Positions 30,430 to 53,359 of a DNA stretch of 64,000 bases are shown piece after piece. A program made the translations under genes and the position numbers. A model generated the notes under the pieces. That model was not told the DNA's origin, made no database searches, and worked only from the letters and a program-made list of their open reading frames with translations. The DNA is from a virus: positions 1 to 64,000 of the IMG/VR virus record IMGVR_UViG_3300034190_002401; one strand, written 5' to 3'. Within the stretch, counting starts at the first letter, position 1. The number at the start of each line of letters is the position of its first letter.

Positions 30430-31908
30430 TCAGGGTATTAACCACCCTCCGCCGGACTGTTCCTTCCCGCCGAACATGCTGTCGAAGCCCGGCATATAAT
30501 CATCTAGGAGGACAACCGTTCCTTTGAACTCCTTTGATGCCCAATTAGCGAGTGCCAAACTCATCGCTAAGTCGTCATGAACACCCACGCTCTCAAGCCT
30601 GCCGTTCTTCTGCATGCCGAATCTGTTTAACTGACTCTCAACCTCATGTGTGTACTTCCTGCTTCTCTCGTCGCCGTATGGTAGTTTGATGTGCCCCTGC
30701 TCGAATGCTAGTAGTAGGGACATGAAGAGTGATTCCTTCTTTGCTCTGGTAGTCATGAAGACACGGATTGGCATGTCTGCCGCCATCTCCCTCATCTCCT
30801 GCTCAAGCATCCTCTGGAAGTTGTTACCCTCAAGTTCTATCAATTCTGGACTGAACTTGTTGTTGAGCATGACCATCATCCTCTTCTGAGCCATTGAGGA
30901 CATACCACGCTCGTGTACGACGTGCACTATCTGCTTGAACTCCTCATCTGGAATCTGCCTCATGACAGTCATCGCTGTGAAGTCAGCGTTCTTGTCGGAG
31001 GATATGGCCGGGTCGTGTCCTATGAAGTGCTGACCGAACACACCGTCAGGCTCTCCCTCCTCGTTGTAGTTGGTCTCAGCCCTGTCTATCAGGGTGAGTT
31101 CGTTGTCCCTAGCGGCCTCCAGTATGTCCATCGGGAACATACTCGCCACGTCGTGGATAGGCTCGCACAGATACTCACGGCTGAATTGTATGGCTGGCAT
31201 GGAAAGCCTTCTCTGTTCCAGCGCTTCTATGTTCCAACGCTCAGGCCAGAGTGCTACACCTTCGGCGTTTATCGCAGGGAAGGTCTCCACACGGAAGGTC
31301 TCCTTCTGCTCCAATTCCGCATACAGGTCGTTGTAACTGAATGGAGTTCCTACCATCATGAGTTTGCTGCTGTGGTGGAGAACAGGGAGCAGTACACCGT
31401 AGAACCAGTCTGCTGTCCTCTGTAGTTCAGTACCGCTAGTGCCCCACAGGATATCGTCGCATACAACCACGTCAGGGTGGAAACCACGAGTAGCACCACC
31501 GACCGACTTGGCCATGATACGAGAGCCGTTGGAGAACTCGAAGTACGATTTAGCCCAAGGTCTGCCCTCTGGTATCAGACCACGAAGGCAATCGGTCCTG
31601 TCGATGTTGCTTTTTATGAAGCGCATGTGCTCAAGCGTCTGCTCAAGGGAGTGTGAGAAAATCATGATGTGCTTGCCGGGATTGAATGCAGCAAGCCACA
31701 ATGCATAGGACATGAAGAACACGGACTTGCCGTGGTCACGAGATGCCTTCACGCAGTAGTACTGCGATTCCTCAAGCCCGTCCTTCCAAGATTGGTGATG
31801 ACCGCTGAAGAGGAAACCGAGTATGTCAACGAAGAAGTACTCGAATGACTTCCTGCACATCTCCTTGTCCATCTGGATGATGAAGTCATCCATCGACTCG
31901 TCACTCAT
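30430..31908 (-). CDS. terL: Terminase large subunit
   Basis: Walker A SRDHGKS, Walker B VVVCDD, GTP coupling motif, nuclease motifs GHDPA and HDDLAMS. Confidence 0.95.
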   Translation of the reverse strand: MSDESMDDFIIQMDKEMCRKSFEYFFVDILGFLFSGHHQSWKDGLEESQYYCVKASRDHGKSVFFMSYALWLAAFNPGKHIMIFSHSLEQTLEHMRFIKSNIDRTDCLRGLIPEGRPWAKSYFEFSNGSRIMAKSVGGATRGFHPDVVVCDDILWGTSGTELQRTADWFYGVLLPVLHHSSKLMMVGTPFSYNDLYAELEQKETFRVETFPAINAEGVALWPERWNIEALEQRRLSMPAIQFSREYLCEPIHDVASMFPMDILEAARDNELTLIDRAETNYNEEGEPDGVFGQHFIGHDPAISSDKNADFTAMTVMRQIPDEEFKQIVHVVHERGMSSMAQKRMMVMLNNKFSPELIELEGNNFQRMLEQEMREMAADMPIRVFMTTRAKKESLFMSLLLAFEQGHIKLPYGDERSRKYTHEVESQLNRFGMQKNGRLESVGVHDDLAMSLALANWASKEFKGTVVLLDDYMPGFDSMFGGKEQSGGGWLIP

Positions 31909-32873
31909 CGCATCACCGACTTCAATAACATAAAAGCCAGTTCCATCGGTTCTCCTGCGTTTTTCATATTATTCTGATAACCAAAATAACCAGCAGCGCC
32001 CTGTGCATCCATCTCAGCAACAAGGTCTTCAGGTGGTACTTGATTCGGGTCTACCGCCGCTTTTGCAGGAACACCAATTTGAGAAGAGCCGACTTTAGCA
32101 TTCTGTGTTTGAAGAGGGGTTTGTTCGACCCCCGGTAGCATCTGACCCATCTGTTCCATGGTCATGGTAGGCACTCCGGCAGAGCCGGTTGGTGTCTGGT
32201 AAACTTGGTCAGCATATGACTGTCCTGCTCTAACATCAGGATTAGGAGCGACATTTTGCAGCATTGATGGGTCTACGTTGCCTAGTCCTGCTGCTCCAAG
32301 ACCGGTAGGTGCTGCTGGTGCTGCTGGGTTGAACATATTTCTCTGTATACCCTTTTGACCTGATACCACTTGATTACCTCCGGGCATGGGTGTGCCGTAT
32401 ATTCCCAGTTGGAAGTTTTCTGGTATGTTGAAGTCCGGCGAGGCGGCAGGTTGTGCTGCTCTTTCTCTACGTACTGCTACTTGAGTATCATAATGCTGCG
32501 GAGGGGCAACATTACCACCGGGTGGCATTTGGGCGTTGAACGCTTCCATTCCCATTCGATTTGCCCTTTCTAACTTCTTTTTCTCTTTGTGCTGTTCTCT
32601 AGCCTCAACACCAGAATCTATGGTTTTACCTGCTCCGAGATAAGTACCTACACCACGACCAGCAGCCGTTTGTGCTGCGCTGAATGCATCCTGCTGGTTC
32701 TCGCTTGCATCTGCTAGGGATGTCAGTGCTGAAAGTCCACCGAGAGCACCACCTACAATTTTTCCGGGTTTGGTCTTAACTCTGAATAGGTCTTGGAGTG
32801 CTTGTCCCCCGTAGGCGTTTGCTAGAGATGTCATAGCACTAGGGGACTTGACCAGAACCTTGCCTTTCTTCAT
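31905..32873 (-). CDS. Gly/Ala/Gln-rich putative internal virion protein
   Basis: TGATG-coupled start (MKKGKVLVKS); Gly-zipper-like segment; C-terminal EPMELAFMLLKS. Confidence 0.6.
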   Translation of the reverse strand: MKKGKVLVKSPSAMTSLANAYGGQALQDLFRVKTKPGKIVGGALGGLSALTSLADASENQQDAFSAAQTAAGRGVGTYLGAGKTIDSGVEAREQHKEKKKLERANRMGMEAFNAQMPPGGNVAPPQHYDTQVAVRRERAAQPAASPDFNIPENFQLGIYGTPMPGGNQVVSGQKGIQRNMFNPAAPAAPTGLGAAGLGNVDPSMLQNVAPNPDVRAGQSYADQVYQTPTGSAGVPTMTMEQMGQMLPGVEQTPLQTQNAKVGSSQIGVPAKAAVDPNQVPPEDLVAEMDAQGAAGYFGYQNNMKNAGEPMELAFMLLKSVMR

Positions 32874-35113
32874 CACTCTCCCCCCAGTGTGACCTTGACC
32901 ACCTTGACTACTGATGGTTTGATTTTGTATGCCTTGGCAATCCTGTCCCAATCGCCCTTGCTGTTGGATATGGTTCTGACATCCTGCTTGGTGATACCGA
33001 GTTTCATGGCGAGGAATGACACGTCATCCTCCTTGTTGGCACTCAACTTCTCCTTGGGCATCTGCTTGAGCACAGCCACGTCCCTTTTAGCCTCAAGCAT
33101 CTGGACTCTTTCCATTGCTTTCACCAGTCTGTCTTCGATGGATAGTGTATCGAAACTGGTTGCCACTGGGAAGGAGTCAGTCAACTTTGTTTGATAAGGG
33201 CTTTGTGAAGCACCAAAAGTTTTGACTGCTTCCATGAGTTTTTGCCTTTGCTGCTCGTCAAGAGAAAGAGGGTCTACTGGTTGCTTACCAGTCTGTTGGA
33301 AATACGATGGAAGACCGAACATTGGCTCTTTTTGCATTCTTCTGGATATAGCCTCTCCTACTTTCTTCCGGTATTCGTCATCCATACTAGCGAAATCAGG
33401 TGGTGCTGCTTCGGGTTGTGCTTCTGGTTTCGCCATCGGCTCTGAGTCGTCTGCCGCTAGCGGAGAGTCGTATGCCTCTGTCATTGCGCTCGGCACGAAG
33501 TAGTTCTGCATGTGCTCAGGCAGTGGTCTGTTGACATCGAGGTGACCATCTAGATACTTGGGGACTAGACCGGGAGCGGCCTCGCCTGACACAGGTGCGA
33601 ACTCACGCACCGTGCCACCGTGACCCAATGTGACGAGAGAACCTAAGAGGGAGAACATGTCTTTCTGACTCTGAGAGGTCTCATGAGCAGGCTCTTCTTG
33701 GGCGAAGTTAGTGAGAGCGTCTAAACTTCCTATGACACCTGAGAGTGCGAGGAACTCGGCTGCTGGCATATGAACCGCCTTGCCCTTCTTCTCGTGAGTT
33801 CCCAGAGTGTTACCGGCAGTGACCCTCTCCATTGCGTTGTCGAACATCTGCTGTCCTTGCCCCTTCAAATCGGGGTGTCCTATCAGGGTATCTTTGAGAG
33901 TATTCACCAACTTATTGACACGTGATGTCTTCTGAGCGGGGTTGCCGAGCATGAATTGAAGAGCATCAGGACTCATGGCCATCTGGTCTATCAAATTATC
34001 AAGTTTGGGAAACTTCTTTCCAAATCTAGTCTCCTCGTATATCTCCCTGACTGTAGGTCCTTCAACAGGACCTGATGGGTCTTGTCTCGTGAATATGGGA
34101 ACGTCTAGCATCTCGGTGTTGTTCTTGTTGAGATTGGAGACAATCGCTGGTAGCAATTTTAACATGTATTCACGATAGTTTTCTTTCTTTATATTAGTGC
34201 CACCCGGATTCTTTACTCCCTCTCCATATTCGGGAAGAGGATTGAAGATGTCAAGAGGCATGTGTTGAATCATCTCCCAGTTGTGAACGTTGTCGTGCAC
34301 CACATCACCTACGGATGAGTGTCCCAGCATCTCCCTGAACTCAGGTGGTAGTGTCATGTCATCTGCTAGGTTCTCACCGACCACGCCTCTCAGTCTCCTA
34401 GTGTTGGGGGATATGTGCCTGCCTGAGATGTAGCCATGCGTGATTCCCTCATCGAAGTTTGATTTGTAGTTGAAGTCCTCCTTGAGAGTATTATGTAGAT
34501 AGGGTGCGAATGGTATCCTGTACGACTCAGGGTGCTGTGCTAGACCCTGCTTGGAGTGCTTGAGACGGGCATCGCTGCTCATGTTGAGGTTGATGAAAGT
34601 GCCACCCTTGCCACGAGCGGAGAACTGGTTCGCCTGCTCTGTAGTTTTCGGACTGGAGAAATCACCCTTGGTCAGCCTCCTCCATTCTGGTGACATGATG
34701 TCCTCAGGCAGGCTCTGGTTCTTCGCATCCTGATGGTCTTCGTTGTAGTCGCCTATCGCATCGCTGATTATCTCCCTAGCGAGTTTACCATTGCCGACTA
34801 TCTTGGACACCTTCGCTATCAGTGCGTCGATTCCGTGTCGGTGCTCGTTGCCGTGTATGTCGGTGTAGACGTGCTCGCCATCAGCCCCCATTCCCCAATC
34901 TCCCTCTGCTGCCCTGTCACCGTATCTGGCGTTCTTGGGGAGGTCGTATCCCATGTCATTGGTGGGGTTGAGGTCGTGGTACTGGTCTGGGTGAGTGTCT
35001 CCTAAGAACACCAACTCACCAGTGAGAGGGTCAACGGTGTACGTTCCCTCTCCCTTTCTGAGCATGCCACTTGCGAGTAAGGCATGTGTGACGGATTTGA
35101 AAAGCAGGCTCAT
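32873..35113 (-). CDS. 746-aa hypothetical (putative internal virion) protein
   Basis: Long coupled ORF with possible C-terminal HTH-like segment. Confidence 0.7.
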   Translation of the reverse strand: MSLLFKSVTHALLASGMLRKGEGTYTVDPLTGELVFLGDTHPDQYHDLNPTNDMGYDLPKNARYGDRAAEGDWGMGADGEHVYTDIHGNEHRHGIDALIAKVSKIVGNGKLAREIISDAIGDYNEDHQDAKNQSLPEDIMSPEWRRLTKGDFSSPKTTEQANQFSARGKGGTFINLNMSSDARLKHSKQGLAQHPESYRIPFAPYLHNTLKEDFNYKSNFDEGITHGYISGRHISPNTRRLRGVVGENLADDMTLPPEFREMLGHSSVGDVVHDNVHNWEMIQHMPLDIFNPLPEYGEGVKNPGGTNIKKENYREYMLKLLPAIVSNLNKNNTEMLDVPIFTRQDPSGPVEGPTVREIYEETRFGKKFPKLDNLIDQMAMSPDALQFMLGNPAQKTSRVNKLVNTLKDTLIGHPDLKGQGQQMFDNAMERVTAGNTLGTHEKKGKAVHMPAAEFLALSGVIGSLDALTNFAQEEPAHETSQSQKDMFSLLGSLVTLGHGGTVREFAPVSGEAAPGLVPKYLDGHLDVNRPLPEHMQNYFVPSAMTEAYDSPLAADDSEPMAKPEAQPEAAPPDFASMDDEYRKKVGEAISRRMQKEPMFGLPSYFQQTGKQPVDPLSLDEQQRQKLMEAVKTFGASQSPYQTKLTDSFPVATSFDTLSIEDRLVKAMERVQMLEAKRDVAVLKQMPKEKLSANKEDDVSFLAMKLGITKQDVRTISNSKGDWDRIAKAYKIKPSVVKVVKVTLGGE

Positions 35114-36429
35114 GCTGTTCGACCCGCCCTGCTGGTGTAGATACCAACAGGGTCAGCACCATGCATCTCCTCTTCCTCTATGTTCTCTGTTGGTCCATTG
35201 GGTTTGCTGGTCTGGTCTCTTGAGTTAGAGGGGTGTTTTGGTAGATTAGAACCACCACCTGAAGTGTCCTTGTCTCCCTTCCCTTTCTTCTTGTTCTCCT
35301 TCCTGTCAAGTAGCCTTGCCACCTTTTGTGCGAGTATCCTCAGTTCCTGCTTGTCTCCCCATGTCGTCTTTCGACTCTTGCCTATCATCGACATTGATTG
35401 ATTAGACATTCTAGGGGAGAAGGATTGTGTAGAGCCACCCATGTTGAGATGCGGCATACCACTGATTCTAGGTGGTACTATTGGAGGAGCACGGTGTGGT
35501 TTCAGTCTAGGTCTTGGGACTTTCGGCCTCATCTCACCCGGTAGTTTGGATTGGATTGTACCTGCACCGGTCTCACCTGCCTTGTACGACCTAGGGTTCT
35601 TCGGATTGGGTGTTGACTCTGTGACTCTGACGTTTCCTGTTCTTTTCCTACCACCTTGAGCACCCATGTAACTCCTGTATGCACCGGGGTCTTTGCTCAT
35701 CGGTTGTTTGGTTGCGATGGCTCTGTGTTCCATCTCGACGGAGAGTGGCGCTTGCATCATTCCTCTTTTCTTGCCTCTCGTGACACCTCTTCTCTTGGCC
35801 TTGTACGAACGCTCGGTGGCGTTGATACCACCACTCATCCCTCCCGGTCCTGTCTTGAACTGCCCTGTGCTGGGCTTGAACTTCTTTCTCCTCTCCTGCA
35901 CCGCTTCCTTGTCGTCTGCTCTACCTGACTCACTGAGTGGTCTGAGCATAGCGGTATCCGCATTCTCACCGAATGACTTGAGCAATGAGGACCAAGCATT
36001 CTCCATTGGTTCACTTGTGAATACCGGGTGGCCGTATGCCGCTCCCGGTCCTTTTGCCTGATTTGCTAAACTGGTCATGAACCCACCATTGCCGGGCGGT
36101 CCAGTGAATGCGTTGATTTCTCCCTCGTTCGTCAATCTACCTGACAGGCTTCTGGGGTCTTCTTCGGTATCGTCTCTCGTTTCTGATGGGTCGTCCTTGA
36201 ATTGTTGGAGCATAGCAGGTGTGACCTTGACGTGTTTTCTGTTCTTGAGTTTCTTCTCCTGCATGTCCTGCTCCTTCTGCTTCTTCTCCTTCTCAGCATC
36301 TAGATACTCAGGGTCACCGGGGTTGTAGCGACTCTCGTATCCATCGTTGTACCTGAACATCGTGGATGATTCGCTTCTTGAGTTGTATAGTCTGGTATCG
36401 CTACCACGACCCATCATTCCCTCGGTCAT
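35110..36429 (-). CDS. Basic, disordered hypothetical protein
   Basis: 439 aa, K/R/G/P-rich, contains EPMENAWSSLLKS. Confidence 0.7.
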   Translation of the reverse strand: MTEGMMGRGSDTRLYNSRSESSTMFRYNDGYESRYNPGDPEYLDAEKEKKQKEQDMQEKKLKNRKHVKVTPAMLQQFKDDPSETRDDTEEDPRSLSGRLTNEGEINAFTGPPGNGGFMTSLANQAKGPGAAYGHPVFTSEPMENAWSSLLKSFGENADTAMLRPLSESGRADDKEAVQERRKKFKPSTGQFKTGPGGMSGGINATERSYKAKRRGVTRGKKRGMMQAPLSVEMEHRAIATKQPMSKDPGAYRSYMGAQGGRKRTGNVRVTESTPNPKNPRSYKAGETGAGTIQSKLPGEMRPKVPRPRLKPHRAPPIVPPRISGMPHLNMGGSTQSFSPRMSNQSMSMIGKSRKTTWGDKQELRILAQKVARLLDRKENKKKGKGDKDTSGGGSNLPKHPSNSRDQTSKPNGPTENIEEEEMHGADPVGIYTSRAGRTA

Positions 36430-36845
36430 ATCGCCTCAGTCTCCCCCATCATGGAGTTAGCGGTCTGTGATATAGCATCTGATAGTTCGATGTAAAACGA
36501 CTTGACGAATGGCGGGTTGGTGAAGCACTTGCCCATTCTCCTGCATTCGTCCTCGAAGAGCGGTAGTAGTGATTTGAGATTGTCCCTCACTGGCCAAACC
36601 GTCACTGGGTCGTCATCCTCAGATAGGGTCTTCAAAGCATCCACTATGTCATTGAGGAACGATGAGTACTCAAGGTTGCCATATGAATCTCGATTGACGT
36701 AGAACTTGAATCTCTTGTACACCAAAGTGGCGTAGTCTAGTAGTACGGGTAGTTCGTTTTCATTGATTACCCTACCATTCTTGATGAGTCTGTAGCCCGG
36801 ATGGGACATCTGTAGTAAATCAGTAATTACTATTCTCTGCTCCAT
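36426..36845 (-). CDS. Hypothetical protein
   Basis: 139 aa with GAGGTGG SD. Confidence 0.65.
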   Translation of the reverse strand: MEQRIVITDLLQMSHPGYRLIKNGRVINENELPVLLDYATLVYKRFKFYVNRDSYGNLEYSSFLNDIVDALKTLSEDDDPVTVWPVRDNLKSLLPLFEDECRRMGKCFTNPPFVKSFYIELSDAISQTANSMMGETEAI

Positions 36846-36854
36846 CTCCCCACC

Positions 36855-37532
36855 TCACTCGCCTTGCTGTTCCAATAACTGCTCTTTAATCCTCTTCCAA
36901 CTATCAGGGCTTTCCTTTGCTAATTCGACTTTTAGTATGTTAAACGTCTGGTTGATTTGAGTACCATCACTGTCTGCCCCCCAACTGTCATTTAACTTCA
37001 CTAGGTCTTTGATGCTCTCCCTCACCTCTTTGTGTAGTTTCACTGCATCACCGACGAAACCATCTTCATGCACACTACCGTAATCTAACAACTCATTGAA
37101 CTTGTCGTTGAGTTTCTCAACATTAGTACGGAGAACATTGACTTCTTGACCTAGAGTGATAGCGACCTCGAATGCTGCTGCCTTCTTGACGAGAGGCTGG
37201 AAGTGGTGTTTCATGTGGTGATAGACGGAGTTCTCAGAGCATCCAATGACTTCTGCTATATCCTCACTAGGCAGTATACCCTCGAAGTATCCTGTCTCGA
37301 ACTCCCCTCTCCTGTCATGTGTGCAAACCACACAGGAATGGTTGGAATCCATGTGATACTCACCCATGTGATTCTTGAAGTGACGGTCTGCTGTATTGGC
37401 CCTCCAATTCATGTCTTTATCCAGTTGCTTACAACTGATTTCACCGTTCAAGAGAGACTGTTCTAGTTGCTCTCTATCATCAGATTGGCAAAAGGCGCAG
37501 GACCTCTTGACCACTCGCTCTCGCTCGGTCAC
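36855..37532 (-). CDS. Tandem CxxC-HTH-HxxxH protein; candidate terminase small subunit
   Basis: Two internal repeats plus coiled coil; first gene of the run leading to terL. Confidence 0.45.
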   Translation of the reverse strand: MTERERVVKRSCAFCQSDDREQLEQSLLNGEISCKQLDKDMNWRANTADRHFKNHMGEYHMDSNHSCVVCTHDRRGEFETGYFEGILPSEDIAEVIGCSENSVYHHMKHHFQPLVKKAAAFEVAITLGQEVNVLRTNVEKLNDKFNELLDYGSVHEDGFVGDAVKLHKEVRESIKDLVKLNDSWGADSDGTQINQTFNILKVELAKESPDSWKRIKEQLLEQQGE

Positions 37533-37580
37533 GAGTGACCGGAGGTATAATCACCAAATGAACGTTGTTGATTTATAGAT

Positions 37581-37847
37581 TTACATCCGACTTATTCTGG
37601 TGTATATCGTAGTCAGTCCCATCATGGAGATAAATATCGCAATCATAGCCATTGAAGCATCAGTTTGACTGATGTCAGAGGCCTTGAAGACCAAAACGAA
37701 AAGCATGACGAGTATTGCGCTGATGAGTTGAATCATCACCATGTCGATAATGACGCTTCTCTTGTGGGAGAACATGTTTAACGACAAGTTGGCCACTTGG
37801 TTCGGCACTCCTAGGGGAAGCGAACCTCTGCTAGGTCCTGACATCAT
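37581..37847 (-). CDS. Small 2-TM membrane protein
   Basis: Two hydrophobic segments of about 20 aa. Confidence 0.7.
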   Translation of the reverse strand: MMSGPSRGSLPLGVPNQVANLSLNMFSHKRSVIIDMVMIQLISAILVMLFVLVFKASDISQTDASMAMIAIFISMMGLTTIYTRISRM

Positions 37848-38485
37848 ACTCTACCCCCGAATAGTGCTCTGTTGATGAAACCACCAGTGGCTTGTCCTAC
37901 CGATTCCATCATACCGGGGTCTGCTAATGCTGTGTTCAACATACCCTGCATGAGAGATTGGTCAGCCATCTGTAGTATCTGCTGTCTCTCAGCCTCAGCC
38001 TTCTGTATTATCTGCATGGATGTATTCTGTAGACTGTTTAGTTGTGCTATAATATTCTCAGCACTTAGAGTTTGTAGGTCGCTAGGCATAGAAGTGACAT
38101 CAAGTGAGAGACTACCTGTAGTCTCGTCCATAATGAACTTGGAGTTCTTCAACACGTTGAGAAGCGAGAATGTAGTGATATTCGACAGCATCTCGATGAA
38201 TATAGGCATGTTCTGACTGATGATGAACTTGTCAATTGGTTGAATTGTGTTGAGCATCGAAGCCAGAATCTGAGTTTCCGAAGGTGGGGCTATTGGTGTG
38301 TTGTATTGTTGAGGAGATATACCTGCTCCCCCTAGAATACCACCCATTAGAGGGGAAGTGCCGTATGAATTAGGAGCATACCCGTTTTGCATGGGTTGTT
38401 GACCGAAAGTGTTTGATTGACCAGTGCCTAGACTAAGCGAGGAGGTGTTTTGAGTGCCCCCTAGATTTGAGAGTCCTAATGTCAT
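37844..38485 (-). CDS. Gln/Ser/Gly-rich helical protein
   Basis: 213-aa coupled ORF. Confidence 0.7.
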   Translation of the reverse strand: MTLGLSNLGGTQNTSSLSLGTGQSNTFGQQPMQNGYAPNSYGTSPLMGGILGGAGISPQQYNTPIAPPSETQILASMLNTIQPIDKFIISQNMPIFIEMLSNITTFSLLNVLKNSKFIMDETTGSLSLDVTSMPSDLQTLSAENIIAQLNSLQNTSMQIIQKAEAERQQILQMADQSLMQGMLNTALADPGMMESVGQATGGFINRALFGGRV

Positions 38486-39516
38486 TGTATCACCTCTGCT
38501 GGGTTTGCTGCTGTTGCTATAGTGGGCACTACCGGAGGCGGTGCTTGCATAGTCGCAGCGGGGTTCAGGGTTTGAGCCTGTTGGTTGAGAACTGTATTGA
38601 ACGCTTGTTGTGCTGCTAATTGTTGTTCATGTGCCTCTCTTTGAAACATTCTCATGTCAAATTGCACCATGGTGATGTCATTTGAGCCTGTTTCTGGATT
38701 TGGTATGTGCCATACGTTGATTCCCTTCGTTCTCTGTGAGTCTTTCTCAATCTCTTGGAAGAAAGGCTCGTACTTCTGAACTAAGTCGGGTGCTCTAACC
38801 TCGTTGGATTGCAGTGATGACACTGGTATAGTAACTAGACTGACTCCTTTCTTCACCTTGTCCTTGAATCTGCTAGGTCTCATCTCATCTTCCTTGTCTT
38901 GAGCGTCTTCCCATTTGCAGAGCAGGTGATAGAGATGTAGATGTTCAGGGCAGTATGTACCTTTGAGAGTCTTACCGCTGGTTACTCCACTCCTCGCTAA
39001 GAATGCTTCAGTTTGTCCTGAAATAGGATTCTGCCAGTACATGTCCCAAAGACTTCTACCTGTGTCTTCGTCTGTGATTCTCGCATAGAGGTTGTCATAT
39101 TCTATGAGTTGCTTGCAATCACAACCATCGACAACACAAGTGCCGCTGTCTTTGGTGTATCTGTATGGACTTCCCAACCACCTTCTTGGGTCTAAAACAG
39201 ACCTCCTTGTTGGTTTGAGTAGTCTGTATGCCTGTTTGATGTCTTTTCTTCTGGCTTTGCGAGGGTCAGCGTGATTAGAGGGGTAGAAGTTCACTTTTGG
39301 AACTTCGAGATTCTTCTGTCCTGCTATCTGCTGCATCTGCTGCTGCGCTATTGCTTGTTCCATAATCGCTGCTTGATTAAACTGAGGATTGCCCATTTGG
39401 GCCATGTTCAACATTGCTGCGTCATTCAAATTGCTTAGACTCTGAGTTTGCATCGGAGTTCTTGTTATTGTGCGATACATATTATCGGGTACATCTAAGA
39501 GACCGCCTACCATCAT
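38482..39516 (-). CDS. Gln-rich protein with putative Zn site
   Basis: CVVDGCDC and YCPEH; Q-rich termini. Confidence 0.7.
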   Translation of the reverse strand: MMVGGLLDVPDNMYRTITRTPMQTQSLSNLNDAAMLNMAQMGNPQFNQAAIMEQAIAQQQMQQIAGQKNLEVPKVNFYPSNHADPRKARRKDIKQAYRLLKPTRRSVLDPRRWLGSPYRYTKDSGTCVVDGCDCKQLIEYDNLYARITDEDTGRSLWDMYWQNPISGQTEAFLARSGVTSGKTLKGTYCPEHLHLYHLLCKWEDAQDKEDEMRPSRFKDKVKKGVSLVTIPVSSLQSNEVRAPDLVQKYEPFFQEIEKDSQRTKGINVWHIPNPETGSNDITMVQFDMRMFQREAHEQQLAAQQAFNTVLNQQAQTLNPAATMQAPPPVVPTIATAANPAEVIQ

Positions 39517-39698
39517 TCAACCTCCGCTGGTGTCACATGAATAGACATTTGCCCGTTTTCTGCCGATAAACGCCATTCTAATTTACTTCCAGCAGTCATA
39601 CCAAACTGCTGAACAATCCACATAGGTATAGTAGTTCTAAGTGAGTTACTACCCCCTCCTGTGGGGACGAGTGTTGTGGTAGTCTTACCCTTCGCCAT
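39513..39698 (-). CDS. AbrB/SpoVT-like swapped-hairpin regulator
   Basis: GGSNSLRTTIPMWIVQQFGMTAGSKLEW. Confidence 0.75.
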   Translation of the reverse strand: MAKGKTTTTLVPTGGGSNSLRTTIPMWIVQQFGMTAGSKLEWRLSAENGQMSIHVTPAEVE

Positions 39699-39733
39699 GG
39701 AGGTCGCACACCCTACTACATCAAAAAGGTCAC

Positions 39734-40447
39734 TCAAGAGGTCAAGAGTTCTACTAGGGTTGGTTCAACATTCCAACCCACACGAGTAGCCATGAAAGCA
39801 CGCTTTGTTGGTAACCTTGCTTTCTGCAAGCGAATTAGGTCATCTCTGAAGGGGTCGAATATCTTGTGCTCACCTATTCTGTTCTGCTGCCATAGTTCAG
39901 CAGCCTTCTTGTCGAAGAACCTGTCTGCCTTATTAGCCACTAACATGACCATTCTGGGTGTGTATTTCTTTCCCTTCAATCTGCTTCTGAGAGTTCTATA
40001 TCTGTAGTCTCTCTGGATAAGTCTATCTACAAGATATTTGAAACCAGCAACTTGCTCTGCGCCTTCAGGCCCACCAGCAAAGGCTCTGTCATCAAACACA
40101 AACATGACACATTCCACTTGTCTAGACACCATATCGTCAATCCACAGATTCCAGAATCTCTCTTGACCACCTATGTCTGCTGAGTATACCACTCTCTTTT
40201 CGCCTTGCCAAGATATTCTCTTCCTAGTGGGTTTTGGTAGCATATACCTTGTTAGTAACTTGAAATGTTTGGTTCTCTCATCCTCGTGTATCTCTTCCAT
40301 CTCACCGGGAGTGGTCATATAGCGGTCTAATGTGGTCTTGCCAACCATGCTAGTGCCGTAGATACCGACTTTTCTTGGCTTCCATGAGTTGTAGAGGTGT
40401 TGTCCGTATATGGCTACACCAACGAGTACACTCCCCCCGCCTACCAT
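39734..40447 (-). CDS. Ras-superfamily (Arf/Rab-like) small GTPase
   Basis: G1 GTSMVGKTT, G3 DIGGQ(ERF), G4 NKAD, G5-like MAT; hydrophobic N-terminus. Confidence 0.85.
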   Translation of the reverse strand: MVGGGSVLVGVAIYGQHLYNSWKPRKVGIYGTSMVGKTTLDRYMTTPGEMEEIHEDERTKHFKLLTRYMLPKPTRKRISWQGEKRVVYSADIGGQERFWNLWIDDMVSRQVECVMFVFDDRAFAGGPEGAEQVAGFKYLVDRLIQRDYRYRTLRSRLKGKKYTPRMVMLVANKADRFFDKKAAELWQQNRIGEHKIFDPFRDDLIRLQKARLPTKRAFMATRVGWNVEPTLVELLTS

Positions 40448-40456
40448 TTACTTCAC

Positions 40457-40717
40457 CTAGTTGGGCAATTTAGAGTAGAGCCAATCAGCAAAACCCTCAA
40501 CCTGCTGATATGTCCACTCAACTGTCCAACCCCAAAGCGTGAAATCACTGTATGATTCCATTGCACTAACTGCTAGCGATGCTCCTAGTGCCGCAAGTAT
40601 GGTTCTAAGCCAACCGACACCCCATTCGTAGGTGTTATCAACAGTGTTAGCAAGGTGCATTGCGCGTAGAGTTTCCTCTACAGAGTCGTCTTTTGGAGTC
40701 TTGAATATCCTACCCAT
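40457..40717 (-). CDS. Small membrane protein
   Basis: WLRTILAALGASLAVSAM segment and Trp-rich C-terminus. Confidence 0.7.
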   Translation of the reverse strand: MGRIFKTPKDDSVEETLRAMHLANTVDNTYEWGVGWLRTILAALGASLAVSAMESYSDFTLWGWTVEWTYQQVEGFADWLYSKLPN

Positions 40718-41355
40718 TAGTTATCGCCACTACCCTTCGTATATCTAAGGTCTGGCGTTCCGTCCTTCTTCAAACGGACATTATTCGATGATATGTCTCT
40801 AGGCGGAACTACTGATTCACGAACCATTTCATCAGCCAGAGAATCTAAGCCAAAACTTGTTGATTGAGTAACATTAGCGTTATGAGACGGAGGTTTTGAT
40901 GTGTTAAATAGGTCAACTCCTAATCCTGAGATACCGGATTGACTGTTAGACATCATGGAAGGGGGCATCTTACCGGGATTCTGCTGCATCCAAAGCAGTT
41001 CCTTCTCCAACTGCATCTCCTGCATTCGTAGTTCCATGTCCGCTCTACGCTGGTCGTAACTGAATTGCTGCTCTCTGAAACGGTAGTCCCTCTGCCTCTG
41101 CATCTCTGACATTCTAACTCGCTCTTGCATCTGTTCTTCAAAGAACATCTTGAACAAGTAATACGCTAGAATCTGAATTGCTAACGCTCCCATAGCGTAT
41201 GTCATTCCGTTGACATACTGATTTGCATTCTCTCCACCGGGCAACCACAATCCGGCATCGTAGATACCTATTGCGACTCCCACTAGAGCCGACTGAGTTA
41301 GTATCAACCCAGTCAATCTCATTTCTGATTTATCCGAAGGGTCTTGTCTGCTCAT
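40717..41355 (-). CDS. 2-TM plus coiled-coil membrane protein
   Basis: Two hydrophobic helices, then E/Q/R coiled coil; start at ATG after GAGGT SD. Confidence 0.7.
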   Translation of the reverse strand: MSRQDPSDKSEMRLTGLILTQSALVGVAIGIYDAGLWLPGGENANQYVNGMTYAMGALAIQILAYYLFKMFFEEQMQERVRMSEMQRQRDYRFREQQFSYDQRRADMELRMQEMQLEKELLWMQQNPGKMPPSMMSNSQSGISGLGVDLFNTSKPPSHNANVTQSTSFGLDSLADEMVRESVVPPRDISSNNVRLKKDGTPDLRYTKGSGDN

Positions 41356-41409
41356 CTTAGTGACCTCTAGAAAGACCCCACGAGGGTGGCTATCATAAGC
41401 CTTCTGCAC

Positions 41410-42438
41410 CTAATTCAGTGTCTGGTAAAGATTAGAACCCGGATAATTAGTATAATAATCAGGTTTCTTCGGAGTAATAGATGACGATTGATATTGTTCG
41501 GTAATATCACCACGAGCATCTCTGAAAGATGGTTTTTGCTGACCAGCAGTATACATGACTGCCTCTTGGCCATACTTCGCTGCCAACTCCAGAAGTTTGG
41601 CCTGTTGCTCTGGGTTTACTCTAGGTATGGTGAATGAGGGTTCTGTGTCTCCCCCCTCTGTCCATTTAGAACCCCCCTCGGCTGATATTATGTCTGGTAG
41701 TTTAAGCCCCGCTAGTTCTGCAAGCATTTGATTACTCAACCCTTCTGCTCTTTTCCTACCCACGGTTGTTGCTCCCGGTTTAGTGCCTATGGTCATGGTG
41801 GGGTACTTGTGAGGTCGATGTGCACCCTCTATTTTAGAGGGGGAAAACTCAGAAAGAGTAGTCTGCTTTGATTTTATCACTCTCAAAGTCCCTTTGTCTT
41901 TGAAGTGTCTAGCCCTGTTCGCGTGCTCCCCCTCTAACGTGAGCCTCCCACCTTGTGTGTGACTGACATCCTTACGATTGTGAGACCCGTAGATGCCTCG
42001 TCGTCTTCTTTCCCTATTGAGTTCTTCACGGTACTTCACACGTTCAGGGCTGGACTCGTATTTTGTGTCATATTCCTTCTTATGACGCTGGGCTTCTGGT
42101 GATAACTCCCTTGCTTTGAGGACTGCAACCCCCTTAACAATCGTCGGTTTCCCACCAATCCCCTGTTTCTTGGCTCTTTTGCGTTTTGTGGCTGACCTTT
42201 TCTGTCCACTTGACATCGAACCAGAAGTCTTTGGAGTTTTGTCTGAAACTTTCACCGATGGCCTGCACTTCGGGTATCCTTTTCCAGACAATTTTGCTTT
42301 CCCCCTCCCGCATGGTGGGTGTTTCCCATCCTTGTCCTTTCTCGATACGTCTACCCACTTCTCCTTGAACCATCGGTTCAGGTTCTTTACCACTAACGTA
42401 TTGTGGCAGGTGCAGCGGGAGTCTGAATCGGTACTCAT
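41410..42438 (-). CDS. Three-module basic protein (DUF5872-like / HNH-like / DUF3293-like)
   Basis: LNRWFKEKWVD..CGR..YPKCRP; KDVSH..NRAR; EPSF..LAAKYGQEAV (family names from memory). Confidence 0.55.
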   Translation of the reverse strand: MSTDSDSRCTCHNTLVVKNLNRWFKEKWVDVSRKDKDGKHPPCGRGKAKLSGKGYPKCRPSVKVSDKTPKTSGSMSSGQKRSATKRKRAKKQGIGGKPTIVKGVAVLKARELSPEAQRHKKEYDTKYESSPERVKYREELNRERRRRGIYGSHNRKDVSHTQGGRLTLEGEHANRARHFKDKGTLRVIKSKQTTLSEFSPSKIEGAHRPHKYPTMTIGTKPGATTVGRKRAEGLSNQMLAELAGLKLPDIISAEGGSKWTEGGDTEPSFTIPRVNPEQQAKLLELAAKYGQEAVMYTAGQQKPSFRDARGDITEQYQSSSITPKKPDYYTNYPGSNLYQTLN

Positions 42439-43590: not shown

Positions 43591-44136
43591 TTAGAGTCTC
43601 TGTGGAGGACTCCTTCGCTCGATTGGCGAGTTTTGTCGATTCACCTGTGATAGAATCTCATTTATCGCATTCCGGTAGTAGTCTGTGGCTTCCGGTGGTG
43701 CTTCTCTACGTGGAGGACTTGGGTCTGGCTTCTTGTCCATGGGGTTGGGCATCTCGAACAGGTCTGGCCTTTCTCTCTTGAGTTGCTCTTGGTCTATGTG
43801 TAGACCTGCATTAAGTTTTTCTTCCAAGTCTTCTCTTTCTGGAGAATGGTCGAGGTAGTCATATTTAGACTCAAAAAAGTCCCCTCTATGCATCTTTTCT
43901 TCATCCGGTATAAGTGGTAGACCATATTCGTCAAAGTTCTCGTTTTCTCTGCTCAGAGGCCTGCCCATTGCGTCTATGAGAGGCTCGCCCGGCTCGAACT
44001 TGAGGAACTCCCATGCTTTCTTCATGGCTTTCTCGTCTGGTTTCGAGGTTTCAGTAGGCTTCTTGGGCATCTTAGGGCCGACAGCGATAACCAGTGTCAT
44101 CCCTGCTTTCTTACCCTTGTCCTTCATACATATCAC
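43591..44136 (-). CDS. Hypothetical protein with AWEFLK motif
   Basis: Coupled ORF. Confidence 0.6.
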   Translation of the reverse strand: MICMKDKGKKAGMTLVIAVGPKMPKKPTETSKPDEKAMKKAWEFLKFEPGEPLIDAMGRPLSRENENFDEYGLPLIPDEEKMHRGDFFESKYDYLDHSPEREDLEEKLNAGLHIDQEQLKRERPDLFEMPNPMDKKPDPSPPRREAPPEATDYYRNAINEILSQVNRQNSPIERRSPPQRL

Positions 44137-44678
44137 TGGTTATTTCTCTGCTCTGGTATCTGAGGGGCGGAAACTCCTATTTTTGATGGTGCGCTGTCCC
44201 TACCGGTCATACCGGTGTTCATGGCATTCATGTCCCTCATGTGCTCTACAAAGTACTCTTGAGCGATATCAGAACTCAATTGGTGCTCATCATCATCCAT
44301 TCCCTGCTCTACCGCAGACAAACCGGGGATGATGCCTAGTTTGTTCATGTAGTGATGTAGTATCTGCTGCTCCTTCTCGTTCCTAGGCTTGTGGTCATCG
44401 AAGATAGTGCCACCATGTGCGTCGAAGTCAGCCTGAGCCTGCTCGAACTCATCCAATTCAGGACCATCCGAGTAGTCCTCGTACTCATCTCTGTACGATT
44501 TCCTGAGTGTGTTGTAGTCGTATTGTAGTTTGAGGGCGGCCTTTCTCATGACATAGGCCTTCTTCATCTCGCCGCCGCAGCCCATCTTCTGCATGCAGTG
44601 TGCTTTTTTCATGCCGCATCCGGGGCACTTCTCATTGTCTGCTTTCAATAGAGTCCATGCTGTGTCAAATGCGCTCAT
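44133..44678 (-). CDS. Hypothetical protein with N-terminal AFDTAWTLLKA motif
   Basis: GAAGGAG SD; motif at N-terminus. Confidence 0.7.
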   Translation of the reverse strand: MSAFDTAWTLLKADNEKCPGCGMKKAHCMQKMGCGGEMKKAYVMRKAALKLQYDYNTLRKSYRDEYEDYSDGPELDEFEQAQADFDAHGGTIFDDHKPRNEKEQQILHHYMNKLGIIPGLSAVEQGMDDDEHQLSSDIAQEYFVEHMRDMNAMNTGMTGRDSAPSKIGVSAPQIPEQRNNQ

Positions 44679-46168: not shown

Positions 46169-47098
46169 TTATGTCACAGCCACCTTGTCTTGCCAATCGA
46201 AAAGGCGATTGTCTATATTTCTTGAAACCGTATTTCTGTCACCGAACATCATACGTTGAGTTGCCTCATCATATTCCGGCTCATCCCCCATGAAGACAGG
46301 TGCGGACTCCTCGTCTCCGACATGCCAAGCCGATAGGTACGGGGTATCGCCCATTTGAGCCATTATCGCTTGATTTAGTTTATTCAACTCAGGTACTTGC
46401 CTAGCAGCAGAATCCAGTTTCTCGTTGAATCTCTGCCAAACGGGGGGACGACTAATCCTTGAACTTCGCTCAGGATGCAAGACGTAATCCACACCAGCAT
46501 TGGCGAGCAACTCATTCAAATTGTTCATTCTCATGTGGCCCGGAGAAGAAGTGTATGCGCTTTCCAGTTGCTGTGCCCTCTCCATGGCACTTGCTGGCGA
46601 TATGTTCGACCCCTCTGCCAATCTCTGTACGACAGGCGATTCGATATCATTCAACGGCCCTCCATGGTCAAACGCCCTCCTACCGAGATTCAACACGGAA
46701 TCGTCGTTGAATGACACTGGCATCTCGAAGCGACCTATCCGCCTTGGCTTCGCGGGGTCTCTCCATGCTTCGGAGTATTGCTGGGCGGTTATCCTCTGTG
46801 GGCTAAAGTACCTCTTTGGGTATTTGTCGCCTATCTTGAGTTCAGGCTCATCTTTCGACATAGACCTAAAGACGCTAGGGGTTCTAGCAGTCGGATACGT
46901 CGGTCTGTTGGTGATGTCCCGCATGGCTTCCCTGAGTATCCTACTGTATCTGTCCCTGTCGCTATCACTGGCAAGACTAGCGAGAAGGCCATAATCCACA
47001 GCCTTCAGCAGAGACCACGCTTGGTCGAAGGGCGTGCTGACAGGCGACTTGCCGATGCGTGCAGCCATGCTTTTACCGACAACGCCTCCTGCCAACAC
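46169..47098 (-). CDS. Protein with PFDQAWSLLKA motif and possible ART-like domain
   Basis: VFRSM..RYFSPQRITAQQYS resembles ART core strands. Confidence 0.55.
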   Translation of the reverse strand: MLAGGVVGKSMAARIGKSPVSTPFDQAWSLLKAVDYGLLASLASDSDRDRYSRILREAMRDITNRPTYPTARTPSVFRSMSKDEPELKIGDKYPKRYFSPQRITAQQYSEAWRDPAKPRRIGRFEMPVSFNDDSVLNLGRRAFDHGGPLNDIESPVVQRLAEGSNISPASAMERAQQLESAYTSSPGHMRMNNLNELLANAGVDYVLHPERSSRISRPPVWQRFNEKLDSAARQVPELNKLNQAIMAQMGDTPYLSAWHVGDEESAPVFMGDEPEYDEATQRMMFGDRNTVSRNIDNRLFDWQDKVAVT

Positions 47099-49012: not shown

Positions 49013-49914
49013 GTATTGAACACACGAGACTTCTGACAACCTCCCGTAAGAGATGGGTTGGACTGGAGTACTCCACTCTAGTGGACAAGATGAAGTGGGT
49101 TGATGTCCCAACACACATAGGTGAATGGCTGGAAGCCATTGGTGGGACTTGGGACTTGGGTTGGACTATGCCGAAGGGCTTGACCAGTTTCATGGCTGAC
49201 AAAGACATGTCCGTGTCCCAACTTGATACTGTGTTGAAGTGGTTCGTTGACCACAGTGGTCACTGCTTCACGTATTACTGCCGGAACGAACATCCGTTTG
49301 GTAGGAGATACAGAATGTCGAAGAAGCCATTTACACACAAGTCTCACAACTACTCTGCAAAGGGATTGGCTGGAACCATCCAAGACAACCAGTTCTATGT
49401 GAACACAAGTGTGTTCGGTGATGGTGCTATCACCATGGACAATGCAACACTCAAGGATTGGTACAACCAAGTGTTGGTTGATTTGCCCAAGGCGAGGTTG
49501 CAAATGTTGTTAGCAAACGACAACGAGAAAGTTGAGCAAGTGACAAGCAACTATGCAGACCTTGCGGTCTACGACTCGAAACTGAGCAAGAGACTGGCGG
49601 AGTTAGACATACACAAGTTGCTGAAGGTGACCATTGAGAGCCACTTCGACAACATGCTCCACGAGAGTTGGGACATGCATCCGTTGGCTAAGGCCGATGA
49701 CTTCGTGGCGACACTCAAGAGTGACTACTTGATTGACACACAGAGCATGTCCTTCGATGAGCAGATTGAGAAGGTCAAGGCTGCCAACACACAGGTGAAG
49801 CAACTCGGAGCGAGCGTGTTCAGCAACATACTTGCGATTGAGTCAGCCAAGGAACAGGCACTGGCTAGCATAGCCAGTCTAGCAACTACAACACAGGAGA
49901 GTGAAGAGGAATGA
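49009..49914 (+). CDS. Hypothetical protein
   Basis: 301-aa coupled ORF. Confidence 0.75.
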   Translation: MSIEHTRLLTTSRKRWVGLEYSTLVDKMKWVDVPTHIGEWLEAIGGTWDLGWTMPKGLTSFMADKDMSVSQLDTVLKWFVDHSGHCFTYYCRNEHPFGRRYRMSKKPFTHKSHNYSAKGLAGTIQDNQFYVNTSVFGDGAITMDNATLKDWYNQVLVDLPKARLQMLLANDNEKVEQVTSNYADLAVYDSKLSKRLAELDIHKLLKVTIESHFDNMLHESWDMHPLAKADDFVATLKSDYLIDTQSMSFDEQIEKVKAANTQVKQLGASVFSNILAIESAKEQALASIASLATTTQESEEE

Positions 49915-52274: not shown

Positions 52275-53359
52275 AATGGAAGAAGTACCTTACAGGAAAG
52301 AATGGAGATGAGAAGATGAAACAGAGAAAGATATGCAAACACGAGACATGCCAGAATGACGCACCGAAGGTCGGGGACTACTGTGCTACGCACAAGTCCA
52401 AGTCCAAGTCCAAGGGACACACGTATGTATCCAAGAATGGATGTCACACAGGCAACGTGCTTGTGTTCACAACACCTGAGGGTATCAAGGTCTACGGTGG
52501 TGGCTCAAGCCGTCAAGGTGGTTGGTGGTTGATGAACCCACTACCGGATGTTGCAATAGGTCCGAGTGAGATTGTGTCCAAGGGTCACAGGTATCTCAAG
52601 AGTGGTGACCATGACTTCCCCGAAGGTTGGAAGGCATCCAACACACAAGCGTCTGACAACACGACTGCTGTGTTCAGCATCGACTGGCCGGACTACTCCA
52701 TCCCTACGGGGCTGGGTCGTGAGTTCTGGCTCGCACTTGTTGAGGACATCTACACCAAGGGTGTCATGACTGTCTCTTGCCAGTGCATGGGTGGACATGG
52801 TAGAACTGGTGTGCAGTTGGCTATCCTTGCTCACTACCTACTGCCTGAGTCCCAACACTCATGGAGGGATGCAGGTCAGTTGATTGACTGGGTCAGGGAA
52901 CACATGTGTGTCCATGAGGTCGAGGCATCGAGTCAGCAGAAGTACATCGCTGATGTGTGTGGCTTGCCTGTTGGAGACTCACGTGTGTCATCCAGCAAGT
53001 GGGGTGGCTACTCAGGTGGATGGGGCAATCACTATGCGAGTATCAACACGCAGAGCATATACAAACAGGTGAATGATTCCCTTGAGGATGGCGACGACTT
53101 CGATGACTGGGAGTACACTGAAAGTGGTTGGTCAAGGAAGGATGATAGTGAAGAAACAGACGTGCTCGACAGGGTATTTGAGTGTCTGAATTGCGATGCT
53201 CAAGAAGTCATCGGGCCGCACATAGAGCGAGACAGCAACGGTGAGATACCGTGCATCACATGTGGTAGTTCCAACATGATAGATGTGACAGACGTAGGTG
53301 TGGGTAAGGTTGACCTTTCCCATTTAAAGGAACAAGATAAGAAACAGGAGAGTGAATGA
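52271..53359 (+). CDS. Cys-based (PTP/DSP-family) phosphatase with Zn ribbons
   Basis: WPD loop, CMGGHGRTG (CX5R), E..SQ; CLNC..CITC. Confidence 0.85.
   Translation: MKWKKYLTGKNGDEKMKQRKICKHETCQNDAPKVGDYCATHKSKSKSKGHTYVSKNGCHTGNVLVFTTPEGIKVYGGGSSRQGGWWLMNPLPDVAIGPSEIVSKGHRYLKSGDHDFPEGWKASNTQASDNTTAVFSIDWPDYSIPTGLGREFWLALVEDIYTKGVMTVSCQCMGGHGRTGVQLAILAHYLLPESQHSWRDAGQLIDWVREHMCVHEVEASSQQKYIADVCGLPVGDSRVSSSKWGGYSGGWGNHYASINTQSIYKQVNDSLEDGDDFDDWEYTESGWSRKDDSEETDVLDRVFECLNCDAQEVIGPHIERDSNGEIPCITCGSSNMIDVTDVGVGKVDLSHLKEQDKKQESE
53315..53334 (+). promoter_or_regulatory. Early promoter copy 3 (inside CDS 3' end)
   Basis: CTTTCCCATTTAAAGGAACA. Confidence 0.8.

Follow-up and report, generated by a model that had tools for sequence, protein, structure and literature searches.

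What would a tailed virus of marine archaea do with a small GTPase of the Ras type? The question is raised by a stretch of 64,000 nt from the IMG/VR virus record IMGVR_UViG_3300034190_002401 (positions 1 to 64,000 of that record; hereafter the window), in which seven co-oriented open reading frames (ORFs) on the minus strand fill positions 37581-41409. The third of them, at 39734-40447, encodes a small GTPase of 237 aa; we refer to the seven genes, in reading order, as A, B, GTPase, D, E, F, and G, and to the whole as the cassette. To our knowledge, small Ras-type GTPases are not usual in prokaryotic tailed viruses. An initial annotation, made from the sequence alone, had remarked on a compact co-oriented cluster here, and the ORF listing bears this out, with 1-4 nt overlaps at five of the six internal junctions. 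We report that this cassette, centered on a highly divergent Arf-like small GTPase, is a conserved feature confined to magrovirus-type tailed viruses of the Poseidoniales, an order of archaea abundant in the ocean. As to function, we favor, with a probability of roughly 45%, a late membrane-acting GTP switch at the host membrane, and we weigh this reading against others below.

The GTPase and its family

In the window translation G1 reads GTSMVGKT (residues 31-38), G3 reads DIGGQ (residues 91-95), and G4 reads NKAD (residues 172-175), in line with the initial annotation, which had described a GTPase with these motifs intact behind a hydrophobic N-terminus. We counted motif residues over 131 distinct GTPase sequences from IMG/VR loci. 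G31, G36, K37, R58, T59, H61, D91, G94, W102, N172, K173, and D175 are invariant in all 131; 130 have T at position 38, and one has S. R58-T59-x-H61 is a candidate switch I, set in a switch I region that is unusual and, at 30 residues, long; the invariant W102 stands seven residues beyond the Gln position of G3. That Gln had been taken for the catalytic residue typical of Arf/Sar-type GTPases, and as a family feature it failed: position 95, after DxGG, is Q in only 71 sequences, E in 40, D in 17, and H in 3. Switch II of one distant clade reads D-I-A-G-Q-x-x-F-R-N-M-W, and an Arg four residues beyond the Gln position occurs only in the distant clade that we call P0126 (see below). The G5-like motif is MATR (‘AT’) in the main clade and S-A-[QRKT] in distant clades. 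A polybasic insert (residues 146-163), placed before strand 5, has a net charge of +5 to +9 in every one of the 131 sequences, and the net charge of the whole protein ranges from +8 to +21.

An AlphaFold2 model from a 24-sequence alignment (mean predicted local distance difference test score, pLDDT, 73.2; pTM 0.75) places a helix at residues 4-22, followed by the Ras-type alternation of strands and helices, and the six-stranded sheet and five helices of a G-domain fold are found in this predicted model. Its low-confidence parts are residues 1-6, 36-39, and 41-51, where the P-loop ends and switch I begins. The N-terminal segment is of moderate hydrophobicity (mean Kyte–Doolittle value 0.51) and passes the threshold for a transmembrane (TM) segment in 4 of 74 members; over 130 sequences, the N-terminal helix has a mean Eisenberg hydrophobicity of 0.40 and a low helical moment, 0.24.

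A Foldseek search of the PDB with the model returned at least 500 matches at E ≤ 0.001, with Rac, Rho, and Rab chains on top (E about 4e-7, TM-score about 0.55 per target length, 12-19% identity). The fold search by VIA-align, which is independent of Foldseek and in which we count rows within 1 Z as ties, placed Arf6, SRbeta, and Sar1 together at the top. When solved structures were searched by sequence with a profile of the diverse family, the best match was 8oun_A (E = 4.7e-8, 36.2 bits, profile positions 13-121), followed by Arl8A (9.4e-5), Arl8B, 8oum_A, Rab33B (1.8e-3), KRas (8e-3), and Arf1 (0.022). Entries 8OUN and 8OUM are GerdArfR1, an Asgard archaeal GTPase of the Arf family, and an interswitch toggle coupled to the N-terminal helix is described as a feature of that family (bioRxiv 10.1101/2024.02.28.582541, in excerpt). 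On the strength of the predicted model, the viral protein is a genuine small GTPase, with an Arf/Sar/SRbeta-like fold and a hydrophobic N-terminal helix.

Family models recognize the protein poorly. The window GTPase stays below the Pfam cut-offs of both Roc (19.5 bits versus 27) and Ras (12.3 versus 21.6), and has no match to Pfam Arf (PF00025) at E ≤ 1. Over 12 diverse members all Pfam matches are weak: Arf in 7 (at E ≥ 0.0048), Roc in 6, MMR_HSR1 in 6, Gtr1_RagA in 2, Ras in 2, and SRPRB in 2 (at E ≥ 0.089). From NCBIfam only the generic small_GTP model matches, in 8 of the 12. The label ‘Arf/Rab-like’ given by the initial annotation is therefore kept in part: it stands for the Arf/Sar/SRbeta-like fold and for GerdArfR1 as nearest solved relative, while no Pfam GTPase cut-off is passed by the window protein.

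As in the Arf family, the viral protein has a Ras-type fold whose strand 1 is immediately preceded by an N-terminal helix; Arf6 and Sar1 belong to its tied top fold group, and Arl8A and Arl8B come next after GerdArfR1 in sequence. The Arf switch II signature is DxGGQxxxRxxW, with a catalytic Gln. The viral DxGG with Trp at +7, the NKxD, and, in the main clade, the ‘AT’ of G5 are as in Arf. The differences are the failure to reach Pfam cut-offs, the variable Gln, the low-moment N-terminal helix, the 30-residue switch I region with R-T-x-H, the polybasic insert, the viral coding, and unrelated partners. ‘Arf-like’ thus appears to hold as a resemblance and is not established as membership of the Arf family.

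The GTPase has no PHROG match and none in a phage collection of 50,697 records (INPHARED), which may lack magroviruses. A word-indexed search found 495 relatives, and the 120 that were listed are 71-86% identical to the window GTPase and come from marine metagenomes, including Tara. A few of these 120 carry the Joint Genome Institute (JGI) label ‘GTPase SAR1 family protein’, so the domain had already been noticed by automatic pipelines. A HMMER scan with the family profile retrieved 82 representatives, many of them fragments, at E ≤ 1e-3 among 1.84 billion protein representatives clustered at 50% identity. The 12 of the 82 that we fetched share the N-terminal hydrophobic helix, GKTTLD, TxPG, DxGG, NKxD, and HPIF, and no canonical cellular Ras or Arf protein is among these 12. 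From these searches, the family appears to be confined to viruses and to stand alone in sequence space. A single distant cellular look-alike was met, a P-loop protein of 245 aa in a metagenome-assembled genome (MAG) of a Microcoleaceae cyanobacterium (L183:5980-7511), which has an N-terminal TM helix, YDVGGG instead of G3, and no NKxD; the next gene encodes 265 aa with a TM segment at the C-terminus.

Co-inheritance of the cassette in a lineage of marine archaeal viruses

To see how the cassette is inherited, we compared its neighbors across related viruses, naming the next genes downstream of G in turn H, I, J, and K. In 80 loci, kept of the 171 IMG/VR contigs that were found with the GTPase and scored by tblastn, E, F, G, H, and J are present in 80/80 and A, B, and D in 79/80, all colinear; A and B are missed at a locus that starts 99 nt before the GTPase, and D is missed at one other (L018). 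Colinearity in 79-80 of 80 related loci argues against a chance arrangement. Because this set had been chosen by the GTPase itself, we repeated the comparison with loci chosen by the large terminase subunit (TerL): from 505 TerL relatives 80 were kept, all at least 72% identical, of which 37 have at least 9.5 kb upstream. B, GTPase, E, F, G, H, J, and K are present in all 37, A in 36 (the miss being at a locus edge), and D in 34. The cluster that the initial annotation had treated as a unit is thus inherited as one.

Two more distant clades, P0126 (13 loci) and P0128 (4 loci), were reached by single-protein queries and scored with profile hidden Markov models (HMMs). The P0126 GTPase is ∼33% identical to the reference of the family alignment. 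Its clade has B, GTPase, E, and F in 13/13 loci, G and H in 12/13 (G being cut by a contig end in the remaining one), A in 10/13, and D in none; three of its records carry a TerL very like that of the window. The P0128 clade has A, GTPase, and E in 4/4 loci and D and H in 0/4. A small ORF between A and GTPase in this clade matches the B profile with an hhalign probability of 76% over 54 columns, and the ORF after E matches F weakly (27%, 82 columns), with other families at ≤2%. Here the block directly follows a chaperonin gene and is itself followed by unrelated genes, several of them with hydrophobic segments; two P0128-type IMG/VR records, L163 (45.8 kb) and L166 (110.1 kb), have the cassette directly after a thermosome-like chaperonin gene. 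In the two P0128-clade records searched (79% and 33% complete) we found no TerL like that of the window, and PolB in one. The P0128-type clade may be the magrovirus group that has been reported to be without recognizable structural genes.

Among the partners of the GTPase, E is the best conserved: it is present in 17/17 distant-clade loci with HMM E-values of 1e-23 to 1e-48, and in most of them its start lies no more than a few bases from the GTPase stop. D is absent from all 17 of these loci, and is an accessory insertion in the main clade. A pair of GTPase and AbrB-like regulator as the functional core was considered and dropped on this count. By these profile comparisons, the conserved core appears to be A-B-GTPase-E, probably with F, and G and H appear to be restricted to lineages. 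The same core in different genomic surroundings suggests that the block travels independently of the packaging genes.

We searched the partner proteins for hydrophobic segments with Kyte–Doolittle windows of 19 residues, at a threshold of 1.6 and a lower one of 1.2. Protein A (40717-41409, minus strand, 230 aa) is read from a GTG start, its first in-frame ATG (codon 19) being at 41355. It has a strong hydrophobic segment at residues 32-50 and a weaker second one, followed by a helical stretch rich in Arg, Glu, Gln, and Met and then by a tail rich in Ser, Asn, and Gly; it has no Pfam or PHROG match. Its orthologues have two segments at the lower threshold in 45 of 71 cases and three in a further 11, in keeping with the 2-TM protein of the initial annotation; the coiled coil that was also ascribed to A is a judgment by eye. 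Protein B (40457-40717, minus strand, 86 aa) has one hydrophobic segment and a Trp-rich C-terminus. The segment falls short of 1.6 in the window protein, and at 1.2 one is found in 69/70 orthologues. Protein G (37581-37847, minus strand, 88 aa) has two, at residues 36-54 and 64-82, and two are found in 68/72 orthologues; though holin-sized, it finds no counterpart in Pfam under E = 0.3, nor any in PHROG. The small TM protein and the 2-TM protein first described at these places are thereby borne out, and A, B, and G are predicted to be integral membrane proteins with conserved hydrophobic segments.

The remaining three proteins are D, E, and F. Protein D (39513-39737, minus strand, 74 aa) is AbrB/MazE/SpoVT-like: it matches Pfam MazE_antitoxin (PF04014, AbrB/SpoVT-type) at E = 1.3e-3, with 19.0 bits versus a cut-off of 24.7, and all of 10 orthologues match the same family at E ≤ 0.058, one of them above the cut-off (25.7 bits). 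D may be the AbrB-like regulator of the initial annotation, and is accessory to the cassette. Protein E (38482-39516, minus strand, 344 aa) is an orphan with a Cys/His core at ∼70-290, in which C127 and C189 are invariant and H192, H194, and H197 near-invariant, and which may possibly bind metal; Gln-rich tails flank the core. Its profile gathers 755 related proteins, all lacking both Pfam domains and informative names, and E matches no PDB sequence at E ≤ 10 and has no hit in the atlas search. Protein F (37844-38485, minus strand, 213 aa) has an N-terminal region rich in Gly, Ser, Asn, and Gln and a C-terminal domain with a hydrophobic segment; its atlas search returned unnamed viral clusters only, with scores of 0.80 and 0.76, which is chance level. 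E and F, at 9.3% and 9.9% Gln, are the two Gln-rich proteins noticed at the outset; we take both for soluble orphans, with low-complexity regions in which Gln, Met, and Gly are frequent.

The window belongs to a virus record of 85,458 nt, estimated to be 72% complete. A large terminase of T4 type lies at 30430-31908 and a portal gene at 27460-29208, both on the minus strand. The cassette is co-oriented with these morphogenesis genes and opposite to the replication module, and the plus-strand half has genes for an SNF2 helicase, a DUF932 protein, and a protein resembling tyrosine phosphatases (PF13350, 6.6e-7). The full record encodes a family-B DNA polymerase (PolB) and a Cpn60/TCP1 chaperonin; in the phage collection, this PolB comes closest to those of haloarchaeal tailed viruses (∼26% identity). 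An SNF2 helicase has been reported for magrovirus group A and a thermosome subunit for groups A and D (PMC5434244, in excerpt). In ICTV’s Apasviridae profile, the morphogenetic and replication modules are read in opposite directions (PMC12999244), as also in the window. From TerL, portal, PolB, chaperonin, SNF2 helicase, and the opposed modules, we take the window by its gene content to be a magrovirus-type tailed virus (order Magrovirales), probably group A-like, the latter as a provisional assignment. 

For the host, the GTPase family was sought in 185,579 species (one genome per species) and found in three records. Two are 8-kb contigs binned with alphaproteobacterial MAGs, and are probably mis-binned viral fragments. 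The third is a virus-like contig of 106,262 nt in the single-cell genome ‘Candidatus Poseidoniales archaeon AG-422-I20’; on it, the order and strand of the GTPase, TerL (45% identical), and portal (48%) are those of the window. This single case directly supports Poseidoniales (Marine Group II archaea) as host, and gives substance to the archaeal host that the initial annotation had proposed. Of the 61 Poseidoniales genomes sampled, which are incomplete, the family profile matches one, the infected AG-422-I20 genome itself; recent capture of a host GTPase was rejected on this ground. In the same 61 genomes we found neither OapB (ArvB, PF09846) nor Pfam Arf, and OapB occurs in 60 of 121 sampled genomes of the host’s phylum. 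Poseidoniales may therefore have undergone a lineage-specific loss of the cellular vesiculation GTPase system, and the lack of OapB, Arf, and the viral family in the sampled host genomes suggests that the virus brings a capacity that its host lacks. Operons of arvA-arvB-arvC are common in the host’s phylum, for example in genomes G165, G084, and G071 (L267-L274).

What the cassette may do for the virus

As a late GTP switch, the cassette would be expressed along with the co-oriented morphogenesis genes, and the GTP-bound GTPase would settle on the cytoplasmic face of the host membrane by means of its N-terminal helix and polybasic insert. There it would meet the integral membrane proteins A, B, and G, and would recruit the soluble orphans E, with its Cys/His core, and F, which is helical and of low complexity. 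The nucleotide state would then set when and where the assembly reshapes or breaches the membrane, most likely for the release of progeny. That the cassette is specifically the release machine of tailed archaeal viruses, with vesiculation or rupture timed by nucleotide state, is a narrower proposal that we regard as doubtful. Release is favored among purposes because G is holin-sized and because membrane-active cassettes lie near the packaging genes in many phages. It is favored, too, by the want of any known lysis system in tailed archaeal viruses, whose egress machinery a 2024 review calls completely uncharacterized (PMC10791045, in excerpt).

A cellular system that bears comparison is ArvABC (OapABC). 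Vesicle formation in Haloferax volcanii needs ArvA, ArvB (DUF2073), and the Zn-ribbon protein ArvC, and ArvA, a euryarchaeal small GTPase with an N-terminal amphipathic helix, drives the process (PMC10927574, in excerpt). Like the cassette, ArvABC is an operon of a small GTPase with an N-terminal helix and small partners in Euryarchaeota-type archaea; ArvABC itself acts on the cell membrane. We took arvA-arvB-arvC genes from seven loci of the host’s phylum for comparison. The viral family matches ArvA with an hhalign probability of 96%, over 70 N-terminal columns only (the N-terminal third, from the end of the helix through the P-loop to switch I). Searched with the profile and at the database size used for the solved structures, ArvA reaches 17.7-24.2 bits, about as much as Arl8 and less than the 36.2 of GerdArfR1, and its G3 is DTPG, as compared to the viral DxGG. 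No cassette protein has a Pfam match to OapB (PF09846) or DUF2072, and E matches the ArvC Zn-ribbon (DUF2072) with a probability of 0.7%, like the controls. With partners unrelated by hhalign, we reject the cassette as an ArvABC homologue; at most, by analogy, it may work like ArvABC, and would not be a copy of it.

Two other systems share parts of the layout. In SRbeta (PF09439), of the signal recognition particle receptor, a hydrophobic N-terminal segment likewise stands directly before an Arf-like G domain; the viral segment differs in not scoring as TM in 70 of 74 members, and SRPRB matches are confined to the two weak ones above. Pfam recognized no SRX or longin-type partner among the cassette proteins. 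As the initial annotation had noted for Roadblock/MglB and endolysin, neither appears in the cassette: no Roadblock/LC7 (MglB-type) partner turns up when the seven proteins are matched to Pfam at E ≤ 1, and no endolysin or holin family is matched there in Pfam or PHROG, the rest of the window not having been exhaustively screened for lysis genes. Holin–endolysin cassettes also have small multi-TM proteins, comparable to the 88-aa G, in a late region near packaging genes, and some phages have their lysis cassette next to the terminase genes. The viral cassette differs by its GTPase and large orphan proteins, which are in no described lysis cassette. Murein is not known from the host.

Several observations weigh against a membrane-acting switch. 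The Gln of G3 is replaced in 60 of 131 sequences, so that Arf-type catalysis does not seem assured; the N-terminal helix, judged by its hydrophobicity and moment, appears to be neither a clear anchor nor a clear amphipathic helix; and around the P-loop end and switch I the model is of low confidence, with pLDDT below 50 at 36-39 and 41-51. No family of known function is matched by A, B, E, F, or G. The holin-sized G is found by profile HMMs in 0/4 P0128 loci. Against ArvB and ArvC, the viral A, B, D, E, F, and G reach hhalign probabilities of at most 0.9%, as compared to at most 0.7% for the controls H, I, and J. Finally, the cassette stands among head and packaging genes, a setting that fits a role in assembly equally well.

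On such a role, the cassette would help to assemble capsids, load cargo, or package DNA, perhaps at an assembly site attached to the membrane. Both in the window and in the P0126 clade it lies between putative head-cargo genes, tagged with a shared motif (FDxAWxLLK-type), and the row H-I-J-K-TerL-portal, co-oriented and abutting with these head and packaging genes. We consider an assembly role unlikely all the same: the P0128 block sits beside a chaperonin gene in a clade where the two searched records showed no window-like TerL; the motif is carried by five neighboring late proteins and by 0/7 cassette proteins; and three of the seven are predicted integral membrane proteins, which would be unusual for head or tail assembly factors. 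The virus restriction of the family, together with a host order that in its sampled genomes has no relative outside the infected cell, would suit instead a tool of host takeover or exclusion, a membrane GTP switch directed against superinfection, defense, division, or secretion, or one that mimics vesiculation without release. The AbrB/MazE-like gene inserted in the main clade and the single cellular look-alike, the cyanobacterial P-loop protein above with its N-terminal TM helix and TM-bearing neighbor, point the same way. The cassette is oriented like the morphogenesis genes and against the replication module, which is not the usual place of early takeover genes, and accessory defense or exclusion genes are typically patchy, unlike a block that is universal and syntenic in its lineage (37/37); takeover seems quite unlikely to us on these grounds.

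Another alternative is that the protein is a pseudo-GTPase, a nucleotide-binding scaffold without switch function that serves as a structural partner of E. The variation at position 95 fits this, as do the unusual, long switch I with its low confidence in the model and a protein that is basic throughout. Pseudo-GTPases usually lose the very motifs that here are invariant in 131/131 (the G1 Lys, the Asp and Gly of DxxG, NKxD, and R58-T59-x-H61), and the 120 top listed homologues have stayed 71-86% identical to the window protein; we regard a pseudo-GTPase as highly improbable. The late membrane-acting GTP switch remains the reading that we favor.

In the surface ocean, magroviruses rank with the most abundant viruses of archaea. 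Literature searches turned up no paper on this GTPase or cassette, though supplementary tables might list the gene, and term searches of the main texts of PMC5434244, PMC11706807, and PMC10160649 gave no mention of the GTPase. A virus-specific Arf-like switch that is co-inherited with membrane proteins offers a concrete gene set for the question of egress, and a new branch for the debate on prokaryotic Arf-like GTPases and membrane remodeling. If the cassette were indeed a release machine, it would be an independent viral invention of GTPase-driven membrane remodeling outside eukaryotes, acting in a host order that, in sampled genomes, has lost the cellular ArvABC vesiculation system.

Layout and neighborhood of the cassette

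Within the cassette, the B start overlaps the A stop by 1 nt, the GTPase start lies 9 nt from B, and A abuts a 342-aa gene upstream. At the other end, a 48-nt spacer on the same strand (37533-37580) separates G from H (36855-37532, minus strand, 225 aa), the downstream neighbor outside the cassette core. A TATAAAT box, spotted by eye rather than by a promoter model, lies in this spacer ∼40 nt before the GTG of H, and the spacer may mark both the 3' boundary of the cassette and a new transcription unit with an archaeal-type promoter. H has two Cys/His-containing repeats, a helix-turn-helix, and a charged helical C-terminal half; it matches Pfam HTH_20 at 5.6e-5, below the cut-off, and weakly PHROG 867 (‘DNA binding domain’), and H could serve as a late regulator or as the small subunit of the terminase. 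Bacterial-type signals, which are uninformative for an archaeal virus, were also counted: promoter-like sites number 8 versus 8.2 ± 3.1 expected, and terminator-like sites 8 versus 4.4 ± 2.1 expected, the latter all on the plus strand.

Of the five minus-strand proteins with the FDxAWxLLK-like motif mentioned above, three (46169-47098, 44133-44678, and 43591-44136) have it close to the N-terminus; in the one at 35110-36429 it is internal, and in the one at 31905-32951 it is C-terminal. On the opposite strand, the early region (49911-55086 and 57157-58374) includes a 787-aa protein without a Pfam match and an Elf1-like Zn-ribbon protein, and the tyrosine-phosphatase-like and DUF932 genes sit beside the SNF2 helicase gene.

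Contigs from RNA libraries, namely two oligo-dT marine RNA-seq runs of one study and one run that is only guessed to be RNA, overlap the cassette at G/F, the F/E junction, E, GTPase, and A. They are short (151-458 nt, depth 2-6, 90-99% alike), cover genes neighboring the cassette as well, and speak for presence only, since DNA can occur in such libraries; they are no proof of transcription and carry no information on timing. A longer contig of 8.7 kb, from a public run whose type is not recorded, aligns to 34257-41409, after which 475 nt are skipped (from 41409 to 41885), with 12 other letters in place of the skipped 41410-41884. Some relative would accordingly be without the C-terminal part of the 342-aa gene upstream of A, which is consistent with the modular make-up of that gene (DUF5872 and other small domains).

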